NCBI GenBank assembly: GCA_033723415.1
Contig: JAWVXD010000001.1
Location: 64,001-128,000 of the forward strand
From: Sulfurospirillaceae bacterium
GTDB lineage: Bacteria > Campylobacterota > Campylobacteria > Campylobacterales > Sulfurospirillaceae
Reading direction: 5' to 3'
DNA: 64,000 bases
Shown here: positions 40,401 through 46,400 of the stretch, one piece after another
Position numbering within the stretch: position 1 is the stretch's first letter
How the letters are laid out: each line of letters opens with the position of its first letter
Program-made: the position numbers

Positions 40401-43400
40401 TTTTGACGATCTCCTCGATTTTGAGGGCTATATGTTCTCCTATAGTCGGGATCTGGGAGAGATCTGTACCATCATACACCATTTCGGAAATATCCGTACC
40501 CAGATTTTCTATGGTGCGCGCAGCATTTTTGTATGCCCGTATTTTAAAAGGATTTTCGCCCTTGATCTCCAGCAGGTCCGCAAGATCATCAAAAAAAGCC
40601 GCAATTTCCACATTTGATATCACCATCTGTATGCTCCTTTTTTTGCATCCTGAACATTTTTCAGACACATAAAAAACCGACCATCTCATTCTACATGATA
40701 CCACATTTATTGCTTTTTATTTCAATTTTATTGTAGAATCAAGGTAAGAATTGAAAAGGAGAAACAATGTTTAAAGACCGAAATGATGCCGGTCTAAAAC
40801 TGGCAAATGCACTCCTGAAATACAAAGATACCAATGCACTGGTACTTGCTATTCCTCGTGGTGGAGTAGAATTAGGTTATGAAGTGGCGAAAGCTTTGAA
40901 ATGTGATTTTTCTCTGATCATATGTCGTAAACTTCCTTTCCCCGACAATCCGGAAAGCGGTTTTGGCGCTGTCGCAGAAGACGGTTCTCTCTATATCAAC
41001 CCTGAATCCGCAGCTTATGTATCGGAAGAAGAAATCGTATCTATTATTCAAAAGCAAAACTATGAGATACAAAGACGTATCCATAAGCTAAGAAACAATA
41101 GAGGCTTGCCTCTTATTAAGGGACGGACAGTGATACTGATTGATGATGGCATCGCTATGGGGTCGACCATGCATACGGCAGTTTCCCTTTGTCGCAAACA
41201 TGATGCCGGAAAAATCGTAGTTGCAGTGCCTGTCGCCAGCTCTCAGGCCATTGAAAAATTCACGCAAATGGCCGATGAAGTCGTTGTGCTGGAGTCTCCA
41301 CACAATTTTCATGCTGTTGCTCAGGTATATGAGAATTGGTATGATGTAAGTGATGAGGAAGTCTTATCTATTGTTGAAAAAAGTAAAGGAAAGAGTGATA
41401 AGATCTAAAAAAATTATAATCCGGGAGCTTTCCACATAGAAGTCGTTACTCCGGCATCAACTAGTTTTAATTGAGCTTCGTAAGCGTATTCAAACTTCAC
41501 TTTCAAGGTATCATAAATTTTTTTATTTTCAGGATTCGGCTCAAACACTTTTTCCCAAACGACAAGTTCTTTGGCAGCTGAGGTGAGATCTTTGTATATT
41601 CCGGCTCCAACGCCTGCAGCCATTGCTGCACCTAGTGCCGTGGCTTCCGTGATTTTTGGAATTTTAACTCTGCATCCGGTCACATCACTGAGTACCTGTG
41701 ACCAAAGAGCACCTTTGCTAGCACCTCCGGCAAAGACTATCGTATCTATTTTGATACCGGTAAATTTTTTGATCTTATCAAGGTTTATAGATGAAACGAT
41801 CGCCGCATTTTCTTGTAGGCTTTTAAACATTGAAATACGGTTACAGATAAGCGGATCGAGAGAGAGGTTCAAAAAGCTTGGAGCTGCATGGTACCATTTG
41901 CCGTACTTCATAGAGTCAGAAAATATCGGGATAATTCCATATGAGCCTGCAGGAACATCTTTGGCTTTTTCTTCTAAAATCGTATAGGTATCTATGCCTT
42001 TATTTTTTGCTTCTTGCTTTTCAAGTTCACAAAACGCGTCACGAAACCATCTCATGACAAGACCGCTAAAAAAGGTTATGCCCTCTGCTTGCGAAAGTCC
42101 TCTTATGACATGTGGATTGACTCGAACCGATATATCTTTTGGTGGTATGACATCACTTTTTATATTAACGATCTGTTGCCAAAAAGATCCACCTAAAATC
42201 GCTATATCACCCTCATTTACGACGCCAAGCCCAGCTGAGCCCAGCTGAACATCGCCGCCGCCCATCACGACTTTTGTAGATGTTGAGAGTCCACTCTCAC
42301 GTGCGGCTTTTTCACTGACCGTACCCATAAGGGTGCCGACTTCCAGACATGGAGGGAAGATGTCATCTTTGAGACCGATCTTTTTTGCCATAGAACGATC
42401 CCAATTTCTTTCTTTGAGTGAAAATATCCCGGTAGTCCCGCCGTTGCTCGGATCGGTTGCGAGGATGTTGCTGAGTTTGAAAAGTATCCAGTCGCCGATC
42501 ATGGAGATCGAAGCTACCTTTTCATAGACATCAGGTTTGTTGTTCTTGAGCCACATGATGCGAGGAAGTGCGCCTAGCGCAAAAGTCTGACCAGAAGTTG
42601 CATAGAACGCTTCCTCGATGCCCGGAAAGTTTTCTTTGAGGTATGTGACCTCTTTGTCGGCTCTGGCATCGACATTTGCTACGGCAAAGAGTTCATGCCC
42701 CTCTTTGTCATAAAGCACGATGCCCTCACGCATACTGGTAGCACTGAGTGCCATAATGTCTTCACCTTTGAGATTGGCTAAGGAGAGGGCTTCTTTGATG
42801 CACTGACATGTCAGGATCCAGTTGTTGTGACAATCAAAGCTCATGCTGTTTGGCACTCCAGGTTCGCCCAGGTGCGTCCATTCGCTTTGAGATACGCTGA
42901 TTTGATTGCCGTTTTCATCAAATATAACCGCTCTGACACTCCCAGTCCCCGCATCGATCGCCATCAAATAAGACATATTACTTCCTTAGTTTTGCTTGTT
43001 CAAGTTCCCAATACTCCATCTCAAAGCTGTCCTTTAAACTGATGCTTTTATATCCGCCTAATTGATCTGCACGCAGTACGGCTAACATCGTGTGCTCTAC
43101 GATATCGTTGATGATCAAAGCTTCTTTCTCGTTTTTCCCAAAACTCACGATACCAAAGTCTTTGATGATTGCATAGTTCGGAGCAGGGTTCAAGCAGATT
43201 TCATCATGAGCAAAAGCATTAAAATAGTTTTTGTAGTCTGCTTCGTATTTTTGAATCGCATCTTCGATATTTTCATCTTCCAAGATCAATGGAACGCGTT
43301 TGGTTCTGATGATATGCTCCGGTGTTAAAACACCTCTTTGGGCAAAATCTTGAAGGTTTTCATGCGCAGCGTAAGTATATGCCAGATCAGACGTATTGAC

Positions 43401-46400
43401 ATGCAAGATCACATCATGACCTTTGTGCTCAGAGATGATGTGTTGCAGTTTGTTCAGATCGACCGGATTTTTTGGAGTGGCATTTTTGAGCGTTATATGT
43501 GCATTTTTTTGCAAAAATGCTTCCGCTTTACTGATAGCATCGATCATCTTGGTATAGGATCTTTTGGCGTCATCATCAAAGGTAAAGATACCATGATGAT
43601 GCAGTATGATCCCCTCACACTTCGACCAGTCTAAATCTTTGCTTTTTTCATAAATGCTCTGTGCCAAGATAAATCCAGGCATCACGTATGGAATGATCAA
43701 AAAGTTTGGAAATAGCTTTTGGATATGTTCCTCTCCCGAAACTGAGTTTGAAATCGTTACAACGGCATCAGCATGCGTATGATCGACAAACTTAAAGGGA
43801 ATGAGGGCATGAAGTATGGCTTCGACCGATGGATTTGGAGCGGTTTTGTCGATCATGGCAGCTTTTTGAGAGCTGACCATATCGGTGTCGCTTAGCGTCT
43901 TGAGCTTTGCCATCTCTAGCAAAACGTCAAGTTTCACAGGCGCGAAACCTTCTGCTTTGATGCTCACCAAGTCCCAGCCGCTGCCTTTGACGTAGAGTAT
44001 CTCTTCGCCGTTTACTGTAGTTTTTACCGAGGTATTGCCGCCACCGTGAAGTACCAGCTCATCACTTCTGCCTAAGAGATTTGAGGTGTAAACACGAAGT
44101 TTTAAGTCACTATCGAAGGCTTTTGCTTCTTCATCGACAAATAGATTTTTCAAGACTTAGCCCAGTACTTCAAGCTCATCCGTATATTTTTCTAAACAAT
44201 ACGGCTCATAGCTAGATTTGTATATCGCATAGTGCGCTGAGGCTTTGTGTCCATCAAGGGCTGCTTCATCTCTCCAACACTCGTATGCCATGAATTTATT
44301 TGGCTTGTTTTTGTATTGGAAGATCTCATAAAAAAGACATCCGTCTTCTGCCTTGGAAGGTTTGACCATCGCACTTAAAAGTTCTTTCATCTTTTCGATA
44401 CCATCGGGTTTTGCTATAAAGGTTACACGTTTTGTAATTGTCATGATACGTCCTATTTTATTAGATATTTTGCACAACCCATATTATCGCTAAGGCTTCA
44501 CATGATGGGTTGGGCAAAAAATCTATTTATTTGAAAATTGTTTCAGTGCTTTTGCTAAATCTTCTTTTGTGTCGATTCCAAAACTTTTGCTTTCAACTTG
44601 AACCATGGCGACTTTTTTACCATGATAGATTGCACGTAATTGCTCTAGTTTTTCGATGTTTTCTAAAGGCGAAGAGGGAAGGGTGCAAAAGTCATTGAGT
44701 GATTTTTTTGTAAAACCGTAAATACCAAGATGTCCAAAATAATGGTCATATTTTTCTCTATCATATGGGATTTTACTTCTTGAAAAGTAGATCGCATAAT
44801 CATATATATCCGTGATGACTTTGACATGGTTTGGATCGTTCGCTTCACTGTCACCGATAAGCTTATAACAGCTTGTCATCATGATATCTTCATTCTTATC
44901 TATAGAAGTTTGAACCCTGTCTATCACTTTTTGGACGACTTGTGACTCGATAAAAGGTTCATCCGCTTGAACATTGACGATGATCTCATCATCTGTAAGT
45001 CCCAGTTTATTGACAGCTTCGTTGATGCGATCGGTGCCGCTTTGATGTGATTGGCTTGTCATGAAAGCACGAAAACCATAATCTTTGGCTAGATTGACGA
45101 TCTCTTGTGAGTCTGTAGCGATGGCGACTTCATCCAAATCTGCAACGCGTTTTGCCGTGGCGATGACCATGGGCAGACCGTTGATATTCGCCAACACTTT
45201 GTTTGGAAATCGATTTGAAGCAATCCTTGCCGGGATGAGTATCATAATGATCAACCTTTGATGAAATTTAGAATTTCTTGTTCGATATGGTTTTTATCGA
45301 CGATCTTGTCATGTACGATTTTTTTATCAAAGAGCTCGTTGACCATTGGTGGGATTTTGACGTTTAGGGCATCGCCAAAAGTTTTTAGTGCTTCAAAATC
45401 GCTATATTTTTTATCATCATCTTTGAGTGCATTGAGCATCGTCGGTGCAAATTTTGTCCACTCTGCCGTTGAACAAGCAATTACCGGTATATTTTTTTCA
45501 GCTATATTTTCATAAGCCTTGATAGTTGTCGCAGTATGCGGGTCCATGACATAGTTTTTATCTGCATATTTTTTGATCGTATCTTTTGCAAAATCATCAT
45601 CGCAATAAACAGCATCAAAATCTTCTCTAATACTTGACAACTCGGCATCTGTAAGTTTGTAAAATTTATTTTTTTGAAGGCTGTCCATCAATTCTTTGCA
45701 TCTGATTGAGCCAAATTTATCAAATAAAACTCTCTCAACATTTGAAGATATTAGTATATCCATAGCAGGAGAAGTCGTTTGTAAAAGCTTTCTATTTCTT
45801 AGGTCATAAACACCTGTGTTGATAAGATCAGTTAGTATGTTGTTTATATTTGATGCTATGAGTATCTTTTTGATAGGCAATCCCATCTTCTTTGCATAAT
45901 ACGCACCAAGAGCATTTCCGAAATTTCCACTTGGAATGATCGCATAAAATGGATCTCCAAAATTTATCTTTTTTTGTTTTAAAAGATTTATATATCCAAA
46001 TACGTGATAGATGATCTGGAAAATTATTCTTCCAAAATTTACAGAGTTTGCGGCACTTAGTTTTATATTTTCTTTTTCTAATTCTTGTTTAAATGATTCA
46101 GAAGCAAGCAGTGCCTTTAGGGAGCTTTGTGCATCATCGAAATTTCCGTGAATTCCTAGAACTTTCAGGTTATGGGCATCTTGCGTAACCATCTGGAGTC
46201 TTTGCACATCACTGGTTCCGCCATCAGGGTAAAGACAGGCTACTTTGATATTGTCTTTGTCTGCAAAGGTGTCTAGTGTCGCAGGACCGGTATCTCCACT
46301 CGTAGCTGCTAAGATCAGATATTTCTCGCCTATTTTTTTTGCAAGATGAGACAGTATATAACCAAAAGGCTGTAAAGCCATATCTTTAAATGCACGAGTA

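Follow-up and report, generated by a model that had tools for sequence, protein, structure and literature searches.

A candidate metal-dependent aldolase for AI-2 breakdown in an Lsr-importer-less operon of Campylobacterales

Our analysis of a window of 64,000 nucleotides from a Sulfurospirillaceae bacterium (GCA_033723415.1, contig JAWVXD010000001.1, positions 64,001 to 128,000) revealed an operon encoding an ABM-fold protein, an SDR-less aldolase-fold protein, and the kinase LsrK, a module that probably phosphorylates, isomerizes, and cleaves DPD to DHAP and a two-carbon unit. In the proposed cytoplasmic salvage route, DPD, a by-product of Pfs/LuxS, would be converted by LsrK to P-DPD. From gene context, we assign the next step to the ABM protein, whose place a cupin takes in other members: isomerization of P-DPD to the beta-diketone 3-hydroxy-2,4-pentanedione-5-phosphate (P-HPD). 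Cleavage of the C-C bond of P-HPD next to the acetyl group would then fall to the Zn-dependent two-domain aldolase-fold protein, presumably releasing DHAP as a metal-bound enediolate together with the two-carbon unit. The Lsr route itself is known; the candidate cleaving enzyme in Lsr-importer-less AI-2 breakdown would be new. Support has grown considerably for P-DPD catabolism in which a metal aldolase does the work of LsrF and the Lsr importer and repressor are lacking.

A three-gene operon and its distribution

The operon is real, as the first-pass annotation had claimed: the three ORFs are co-oriented and separated by only 3 and 1 bp (Table 1). The genome is 100% complete, and its luxS and pfs genes, reported earlier, were both found again. 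The spacer between kdsB and the ABM gene holds a hairpin (MFE -18.6 kcal/mol, z -2.3; 6 of 200 shuffles equally low) that is single-copy in the genome, has no counterpart in the fetched loci, and possibly marks the end of the upstream transcript; a scan of this spacer for promoter- and terminator-like elements returned nothing above chance.

Table 1. Coordinates of the operon and its upstream spacer, numbered along the window
Feature	Position	Strand	Description
ABM-fold protein gene	44157-44444	(-)	95 aa; Pfam ABM 54.2 bits
SDR-less RhaE-type aldolase-fold gene	42978-44153	(-)	391 aa; TTG start; Pfam Aldolase_II 70.7 bits
LsrK gene	41414-42976	(-)	520 aa; FGGY; AI-2/DPD kinase
kdsB-ABM spacer	44445..44522	(-)	78 bp; imperfect hairpin and AGGA Shine-Dalgarno-like site

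Among 80 re-fetched aldolase-bearing genome loci, ABM was present in 71, lsrK in 65, and the unbroken ABM-aldolase-lsrK order in 44, while other gene clusters were common to at most 13, which bears out the earlier counts (73, 55, 39, and 11, respectively). The only recurrent pathway neighbors of the aldolase across these loci were ABM, lsrK, and a cupin. The literature passages covered do not describe the ABM-aldolase-lsrK module; a printed remark on the rhizobial gene is possible, and the rhizobial SDR-less aldolase gene has perhaps already received the name aitF in Pereira 2008.

Our survey of 201 Campylobacterales genomes, in which kinship among genomes inflates co-occurrence counts, placed LsrK in 60, close to the 114 of 401 order genomes counted previously. 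The aldolase occurred in 58 of the 60 LsrK-positive and in 0 of the 141 LsrK-negative genomes, the two LsrK-positive genomes without it being fragmented assemblies. LsrF (NF006081) was detected in 0 of 201 genomes, with the Klebsiella control record positive.

Lsr transport, luxS, and the fate of AI-2

Searches of the Sulfurospirillaceae genome yielded no tblastn match to LsrB, LsrC, LsrD, LsrR, or LsrF at E 1e-4 and no match to the LsrB and LsrF family models, and the previously noted lack of the LsrR family Sugar-bind (PF04198) and the DeoC/LsrF family (PF01791) was reproduced by profile searches. The RbsB-like gene at 22533-23498 was rejected as a hidden Lsr receptor: its best NCBIfam match is RbsB at 93.6 bits (cut-off 337), its 36 solved-structure matches include no LsrB or LuxP, and it is followed by a GGDEF-EAL gene, with no permease. 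Given the dCache_1 proteins and an AI-2E family transporter in the genome, the original description of the operon as receptor-less goes too far, as does a restriction to self-made DPD, and Lsr-importer-less is the better term.

The lack of the Lsr importer and LsrR makes metabolic recycling or detoxification a more natural reading of the module than an Lsr signaling circuit. The same chemistry could instead serve mainly to scavenge or quench the AI-2 of neighbors via a non-Lsr carrier, perhaps feeding a non-LsrR sensor, an alternative that we regard as rather unlikely. The genome does encode a single AI-2E family transporter, and of its seven dCache_1-like domains one exceeds the cut-off; S. 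meliloti, which lacks luxS as far as the title of Pereira 2008 quoted in PMC2728841 indicates, nevertheless carries an aldolase homologue in its lsr operon. However, LsrB (NF011937) was found in 0 of 201 genomes (controls 2 of 2), the five BPD_transp_2 systems of the genome resemble branched-chain amino acid/urea transporters in gene content, and its only Peripla_BP_4 protein precedes a GGDEF-EAL gene. SAM-cycle housekeeping is indicated by luxS adjoining module genes in four genomes (G034, G139, G181, and G059) and by metK, which 4 of 80 loci carry within the cassette or next to it. Only this adjacency of luxS counts; its mere presence, cited at first as support, is uninformative and was dropped as evidence, since luxS is near-universal (194 of 201 genomes). 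Approximately 30% of the sampled Campylobacterales can probably consume self-made DPD without the Lsr importer or repressor, which bears on whether AI-2 is a signal or a by-product in this order, posed as an open question in a passage of PMC2628731.

The aldolase-fold protein, its relatives, and the cleavage step

The aldolase-fold protein spans positions 1-410 of the 583 positions of NF006197 and lacks the SDR part; its ORF ends ahead of lsrK, and the longest aldolase ORF in the 80 re-fetched loci reaches 427 aa, with no SDR fusion. Within the PRK08324 aldolase/SDR family it represents the N-terminal module, and it is not a classical RhaD, which corrects its initial RhaD-type label. Its AlphaFold model (pLDDT 96) has PDB 3M4R as the top Foldseek match, again the only solved sequence relative, and its C-half folds like YgbL/FucA/AraD (Z 10.6, rmsd 2.9, 128 aligned). 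The fold, three Zn histidines, and catalytic acid of class II aldolases/adducins are all present, the protein comprising a catalytic class II domain (E111; Zn ligands H125/H127/H187) and a second, degenerate class II domain. In 37 of 37 SDR-less rows from Campylobacterales these four residues do not vary, and H187 alone is invariant in a stretch where H185 and H186 vary, so the previously assigned HHH zinc motif does not hold. Only three weak columns separated SDR-less from fused forms, with no convincing active-site marker. We propose the protein as the P-HPD-cleaving enzyme in the LsrF role.

All 8 of the rhizobial/roseobacter-type lsr operons examined carry a likewise SDR-less homologue (38% identity) directly after lsrB, the place of lsrF in the lsr operon. 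LsrF remained below the cut-off on the 7 replicons of this type searched, including the 3.7-Mb S. meliloti record; Klebsiella, Lacticaseibacillus, and Bacillus carry lsrF in their own lsr loci. Together with the co-occurrence with LsrK and the lack of LsrF in the order, this sustains the earlier suggestion of a metal aldolase taking the place of LsrF, but not as a strict either-or replacement, because both occur side by side elsewhere. LsrF stands beside the SDR-less aldolase in Sagittula and at metagenome locus L174 (order lsrK fragment-cupin-lsrF-aldolase) and near fused forms at L158, L160, L224, and, more weakly, L211; L091, L174, L158, L160, and L224 rule out strict mutual exclusion.

SDR-less LsrK-linked forms arose at least twice, as one origin of the two groups was rejected by the tree (AU p 1.6e-7) built from 34 of 117 rows with quick LG+G4, leaving out 22 partial-length representatives and those without the C-terminal motif; a 117-row FastTree was concordant. 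A third SDR-less clade includes Actinobacteria. Our metagenome scan of the family gave 68 fused, 3 SDR-less, and 9 unclear loci, the SDR-less ones being one with an lsrK fragment, cupin, and lsrF, one with mtnA and a separate SDR gene, and one very short. MtnA (TIGR00512) had no match in the Sulfurospirillaceae genome, which is one of 36 without it among the 50 genomes that carry the SDR-less form, indicating that the SDR-less form is not fed by the DHAP shunt. All 10 genomes fetched from the 14 MtnA-positive SDR-less ones hold a separate ~200-aa ORF by mtnA, and 4 of 4 tested were Aldolase_II.

The SDR would not be needed in the proposed route, since P-HPD and its cleavage products have the same oxidation level. 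The two-carbon unit has roughly an even chance of being acetate, formed by metal-dependent hydrolytic retro-Claisen cleavage, and is unlikely to be acetyl-CoA as with LsrF. Passages of PMC3870299 describe RhaEW, the one assayed family member found, as yielding DHAP and a carboxylate and as forming no DHAP without NAD+; by analogy, this need could mean that the module alone is inactive.

Should an unlinked reductase convert P-HPD to 5-deoxy-pentulose-1-phosphate, retro-aldol cleavage would give DHAP and acetaldehyde, as with Ald2. This seems improbable. In its favor, the class II catalytic set is standard and intact, three SDR-like matches lie elsewhere in the genome, and 5 of 8 Campylobacterales genomes have the fused relative behind mtnA (MtnA in 19 of 80 metagenome loci). 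Against it, an SDR is nearby in only 1 of 80 genome loci, none is annotated inside rhizobial/roseobacter-type lsr operons, and a route that needs a redox step would poorly account for the fused SDR having been lost repeatedly. We give slightly less credence still to the protein being an epimerase/isomerase or an O2-using enzyme, with P-HPD broken oxidatively or by LsrF-like or other enzymes. Its fold includes AraD and pyruvic oxime dioxygenase, epimerases and dioxygenases are among its neighbors in the fold search, it co-occurs with LsrF in several loci, and a passage of PMC2728841 refers to an early report of P-AI-2 yielding 2-phosphoglycolate; yet the sampled genomes all lack LsrF, the module has no other candidate lyase, and RhaEW cleaves C-C bonds in the account excerpted from PMC3870299.

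Beyond cleavage of P-HPD by this operon, we tentatively consider, at somewhat less than even chance, that the RhaE-type module of the aldolase/SDR family is a metal-dependent beta-diketone hydrolase rather than an aldolase acting ahead of an aldehyde dehydrogenase. The SDR of fused forms would first oxidize C4 of a ketose-1-phosphate, and 5-deoxyribulose-1-phosphate oxidized at C4 would be exactly P-HPD, the LsrG product. The isomerase of lsrK operons would supply P-HPD directly, and the SDR could therefore have been dropped independently in Alphaproteobacteria and Campylobacterales. Such a hydrolase would account for the failure of RhaEW to form DHAP in the absence of NAD+, for ABM-lsrK without an intervening aldolase in two genomes with a fused mtnA-linked enzyme (G161 and G115), and for the frequent position of LsrF beside the aldolase/SDR family; AI-2 catabolism and 5'-deoxyadenosine salvage would then meet at P-HPD as a common node.

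Kinase, first gene, and comparison with known systems

LsrK passes NF008187 (864.5 bits, cut-off 528), upholding its first assignment as a true LsrK, matches E. coli LsrK 5YA0 at E 4e-191, and is 55.9% identical to Klebsiella LsrK and 55-57% identical to LsrKs of complete lsr operons. In the 5YA0 alignment, 10 of the 10 predicted DPD-pocket residues named in a section of PMC8016206 are identical. As the family cut-off is passed and the pocket residues are kept, we strongly infer that it phosphorylates DPD. FGGY kinases do change specificity, and a related cluster in Sagittula has a non-LsrK kinase (172 bits, cut-off 528), but these scores, identities, and pocket residues and the luxS adjacency make a kinase drifted to another small sugar/diketone, in an operon unrelated to DPD, highly improbable.

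The first gene, once termed lsrG-like, encodes a non-orthologous ABM: LsrG orthology is ruled out by 31.6 bits against NF007791 (cut-off 135), 28% identity to Klebsiella LsrG over 61 aa, and the eighth rank of LsrG, behind seven non-LsrG ABM structures, in the profile search of solved structures. LsrG reportedly relies on an Asn/Glu/His/His catalytic set that includes Asn25, said to have been described by Marques in 2011. Met26 occupies the Asn25 column, and E55, H66, and H71 are invariant in 14 ABM orthologues and are also present in unrelated ABMs. Gene context leads us to propose the ABM as the P-DPD isomerase in the LsrG role: its orthologues occur in 45 of 201 genomes, 44 of them LsrK-positive, and ABM or the cupin is present in 58 of 60 LsrK-positive genomes (ABM only 34, cupin only 14, both 10, neither 2), with ABM in only 1 and the cupin in 0 of the LsrK-negative ones. 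The cupin, which thus replaces ABM in 14 genomes, also fills the LsrG gap in the Bacillus lsrRK-cupin-lsrF locus.

These results point to a specific enzyme that may carry out the last step of AI-2 catabolism, so far missing in LsrK-positive, LsrF-negative bacteria, including S. meliloti, a model for AI-2 eavesdropping. They also offer a first testable substrate for the large aldolase/SDR family and another way in which RhaEW chemistry might be read.

Like the DHAP shunt (MtnK or MtnP, MtnA, and Ald2, EC 4.1.2.62), as outlined in part of PMC10986504, the proposed route would turn a SAM by-product into DHAP via a class II aldolase fold, and the closest fused relatives of the aldolase lie in mtnA operons; unlike the shunt, the genome lacks MtnA, the substrate would be supplied by LsrK, and Ald2, an aldehyde-releasing enzyme, consists of a single domain of ~200 aa. 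RhaEW (YuxG)/PRK08324 shares the two-domain N-terminal module, the Zn histidines, and a C-terminal EYW..E motif, and its products match our proposal, whereas the aldolase here lacks the SDR domain, lies outside a rhamnose locus, and is only ~27-31% identical to these nearest assayed, rhamnose-type relatives. The lsr (ait) operon of Sinorhizobium meliloti and other Alphaproteobacteria likewise combines LsrK (55%) with the SDR-less homologue after lsrB and an ABM, there after lsrK, but keeps the importer and regulator; its ABM is 44-51% identical to LsrG, unlike the ABM here, and its aldolase dropped the SDR independently of the Campylobacterales form. The E. coli/Salmonella Lsr system (lsrRK, lsrACDBFG) has a true LsrK and an ABM-fold protein in the LsrG role and, in the portion of PMC8016206 concerned, follows the sequence predicted here, from DPD through P-DPD and P-HPD to DHAP and a C2 unit. 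Unlike that system, the present operon comes without LsrACDB, LsrR, and LsrF, and the enzyme proposed for its last step has a metal-dependent class II aldolase fold, whereas LsrF is a class I Schiff-base thiolase.

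Operon layout and distribution in Campylobacterales

Three ORFs arranged head to tail, with intergenic gaps of 3 and 1 bp, encode an ABM-fold protein, a class II aldolase-fold protein and the FGGY kinase LsrK, flanked upstream by kdsB, thrC and argB and downstream by a converging phosphoribosyltransferase gene. Among 80 genome loci fetched via the aldolase, ABM was present in 71, lsrK in 65 and the contiguous three-gene order in 44; the genes flanking the module differed between genera and every other cluster was common to at most 13 loci, which upholds the contiguous operon proposed by the first-pass annotation. 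The three-gene module is real, conserved and mobile, and the description of its hosts as free-living rests on the record titles of these loci, mostly Sulfurovum, Sulfurimonas, Arcobacter, Halarcobacter and Sulfurospirillum. With third-position GC of 0.43 and 0.45 against a median of 0.28, lsrK and the aldolase gene rank among the highest 2-3% of the 1357 ORFs. The aldolase shares 80% identity with that of a genome from another family versus 67% for a same-genus genome; on both grounds this operon copy was probably acquired horizontally. The spacer immediately 5' of the ABM ribosome-binding site holds an imperfect hairpin (z -2.3).

Features of the window discussed in the text
Feature	Length	Position	Strand
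ABM-fold protein	95 aa	44157-44444	minus
Class II aldolase-fold protein	391 aa	42978-44153	minus
FGGY kinase LsrK	520 aa	41414-42976	minus
Unique spacer with hairpin	78 bp	44445-44522	
PolX		38902-40704	
F1F0 ATPase gene set		31893-38352	beta and alpha opposite
High-GC acetate--CoA ligase/pyruvate dehydrogenase cluster		26759-31655	minus
RbsB-like periplasmic binding protein, GGDEF-EAL protein		22533-25957	plus
Low-GC block		15758-21991	minus

Distribution was assessed in one draw of 201 genomes of the order, each at least 90% complete, whose members are related and not independent, so that the counts describe patterns rather than statistics. LsrK was found in 60 genomes and the aldolase in 58, every one LsrK-positive; the two LsrK-positive genomes without it are assemblies of 240 and 360 contigs. 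Profile searches found LsrB and LsrF in none of the 201 genomes, while the same models detected both on control records, in agreement with a module that lacks the Lsr importer and LsrF. LuxS, whose presence had been cited as support, occurs in 194 of the 201 genomes and is therefore uninformative as such. Its position, unlike its presence, carries information: one genome has the order aldolase-lsrK-cupin-luxS-metK (G034), two have luxS divergent from the aldolase gene (G139 and G181), and in another ABM and luxS are adjacent (G059).

Judged by gene content, the window genome has no sugar-type ABC importer; it does encode an AI-2E transporter and dCache_1 domains, so AI-2 might be taken up or sensed in another way. 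The RbsB-like gene, the genome's sole Peripla_BP_4 gene, is directly followed by the GGDEF-EAL gene, and the two form a putative ligand-sensing c-di-GMP pair. The F1F0 set scored high on "alternate F1F0" models, yet below their cut-offs, and adjoins PolX, a CMD-family gene and the phosphoribosyltransferase gene; this region resembles an accessory island that stops at the lsrK operon. Besides a retron-like reverse transcriptase of 578 aa, which stays below cut-off on the St85, TIR and Ec67 models, the low-GC block holds two ORFs (234 and 617 aa) that match no Pfam family; it is possibly an anti-phage island.

The kinase and the proposed isomerase step

With 864.5 bits against NF008187 (cut-off 528) and an E value of 4e-191 to E. 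coli LsrK, the kinase is, on sequence, a true LsrK, as originally annotated, and the window protein has identical residues at all ten positions that PMC8016206 gives for the predicted DPD pocket. The "lsrG-like" label of the first gene did not survive: ABM reached 31.6 bits on the LsrG model (cut-off 135), is 28% identical to LsrG, to which rhizobial ABMs are 44-51% identical, and LsrG ranked eighth among solved structures. Its proposed role in the isomerase step rests on context. ABM occurred in 45 of the 201 genomes, 44 of them LsrK-positive, and a 124-aa cupin, first met 3' of lsrK in Arcobacter loci, in 24, all LsrK-positive. The 60 LsrK-positive genomes divide into 34 with ABM only, 14 with the cupin only, 10 with both and 2 with neither, the last being fragmented assemblies. 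The same cupin follows lsrK in Deinococcus (47%), and in a Bacillus lsr locus, where LsrG had no match, it lies between lsrK and lsrF. Given this split and these positions, ABM and the cupin look like alternative fillers of the predicted isomerase step. A 472-aa protein, P0115, carries both ABM and Aldolase_II domains and is possibly a natural fusion of module genes 1 and 2, or else a read-through artefact.

The aldolase family and its proposed chemistry

The aldolase aligns to the first 410 of the 583 positions in the PRK08324.2-5 model and ends before the SDR, which marks it, by homology, as an SDR-less counterpart of the N-terminal module found in bifunctional aldolase/SDR proteins. Its predicted structure is confident (pLDDT 96); in structure searches with it the N-half matched 3M4R and FucA-like folds, and a second domain of class II aldolase type makes up the C-half (Z 10.6, rmsd 2.9, 128 aligned). 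E111, H125, H127 and H187 are invariant, and H185 and H186 vary, so the previously noted "HHH" zinc motif was wrong in detail.

In Campylobacterales, eight of the 58 aldolase copies carry a fused SDR. MtnA occurs in seven of these eight genomes, mtnA adjoins the fused gene in five, and the kinase upstream is, we presume from its motif, MtnK-like. Five loci (L096-L098, L100 and L101) have operons of mtnK-like, mtnA and fused aldolase-SDR genes; this is a variant of the DHAP shunt, with the fusion in the place of the relatives' short Ald2-like gene. In two genomes (G161 and G115) the ABM gene directly adjoins lsrK and the intervening aldolase gene is missing, which suggests that the fused enzyme serves both routes there. 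MtnA is absent from 36 of the 50 genomes that carry the SDR-less form. Ten of the 14 MtnA-positive ones were fetched, and in these a separate short gene adjoins mtnA, with Aldolase_II in 4/4 tested. In 80 metagenome loci drawn from the family at large, many on short contigs, 68 were fused and 19 carried MtnA, and no lsrK lay near the fused gene in those 68, a result to be read with the short contigs in mind. In trees, the SDR-less forms of Campylobacterales grouped with the fused forms of that order, and those of Alphaproteobacteria with different fused forms; a single clade for the two SDR-less groups was rejected (p 1.6e-7). Ruania and Timonella are among the members of a third SDR-less clade.

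In the reading that we consider probable, DPD is phosphorylated, isomerised and cleaved to DHAP and a two-carbon unit, probably acetate, with the aldolase in the LsrF role. The diketone 3-hydroxy-2,4-pentanedione-5-phosphate (P-HPD) is DHAP bearing an acetyl group; zinc at the class II site would stabilise the DHAP enediolate, and the hydrated acetyl carbonyl would be cleaved to acetate and DHAP, a redox step not being required. In the Lsr pathway, as PMC8016206 describes it, LsrG converts phospho-DPD to the beta-diketone, which LsrF then splits with CoA to DHAP and acetyl-CoA. RhaEW converts rhamnulose-1-phosphate to DHAP and lactate, forms no DHAP without NAD+, and is interpreted by the authors as performing aldol cleavage followed by aldehyde oxidation (PMC3870299). 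These data from the only assayed family member found fit oxidation first and diketone hydrolysis second equally well. Oxidation of 5-deoxyribulose-1-phosphate at C4 yields P-HPD. We tentatively raise, at somewhat less than even odds, a family chemistry in which SDR oxidation precedes diketone hydrolysis and P-HPD is reached from 5-deoxyribulose-1-phosphate; it would explain why the SDR was lost repeatedly beside lsrK, why the fused enzyme seems to serve two routes in G161 and G115, and why LsrF occurs next to the aldolase/SDR family.

Two loci (L091 and L224) have a full set of ABC importer, GlpD-like FAD dehydrogenase, non-LsrK FGGY kinase, LsrF and aldolase family member, and two others (L158 and L160) combine LsrF, the fused enzyme and a binding protein; these clusters probably represent an undescribed deoxy-polyol pathway also ending at P-HPD. 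The high-GC cluster, about 10 kb from the operon, encodes pyruvate dehydrogenase E1 alpha/beta/E2 and an acetate--CoA ligase that exceeds the NF003313 cut-off; it could recapture acetate, and it was not a shared neighbour across the 80 related loci.

Comparison with complete lsr operons

Twelve of the 80 plasmid-collection records that matched LsrK were inspected. All eight rhizobial/roseobacter-type loci (Rhizobium WL3, S. meliloti, an "unverified Roseateles" record, Thalassospira, Paracoccus, Alloyangia, Tritonibacter and Ensifer) have lsrA-C-D-B followed by an SDR-less class II aldolase gene, with lsrR-lsrK-ABM divergent. Klebsiella and Lacticaseibacillus have lsrF in the slot after lsrB, and Bacillus has it 3' of lsrK and the cupin. 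LsrF scored below cut-off on seven of the rhizobial/roseobacter-type replicons, including the 3.7-Mb S. meliloti record, a result for these replicons only. From this order and this absence, the aldolase family fills the lsrF slot in complete AI-2 import operons. Five of these aldolases, compared directly, are 37-39% identical to the window protein; the S. meliloti gene may be the one named aitF. The suggestion that the aldolase replaces LsrF gains from the slot in 8/8 operons and from LsrF in 0/201 genomes, but LsrF co-occurs elsewhere, beside the SDR-less form in L174 and in Sagittula, where the kinase is not an LsrK, and near fused forms in L158, L160 and L224, so that "replacement" is better read as an alternative or parallel route. 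In Deinococcus psychrotolerans, an MFS transporter-lsrK-cupin locus (L088, 8278-11961) contains no lsrF and no copy of this aldolase, and LsrF is likewise missing from the replicon; this is another stripped LsrK module.

No description of the ABM-aldolase-lsrK module was found in the literature searched, a scope outside which Pereira 2008 and Marques 2011/2014 fall. According to the accessible text of PMC3420918, S. meliloti and Rhodobacter have homologues of Lsr components, and a gene for a sugar-phosphate isomerase adjoins lsrK; this aldolase is not mentioned there. Because importer, repressor and LsrF were all tested and absent, we place the module outside the Lsr system as a member and predict that it acts like the catabolic arm of that system.
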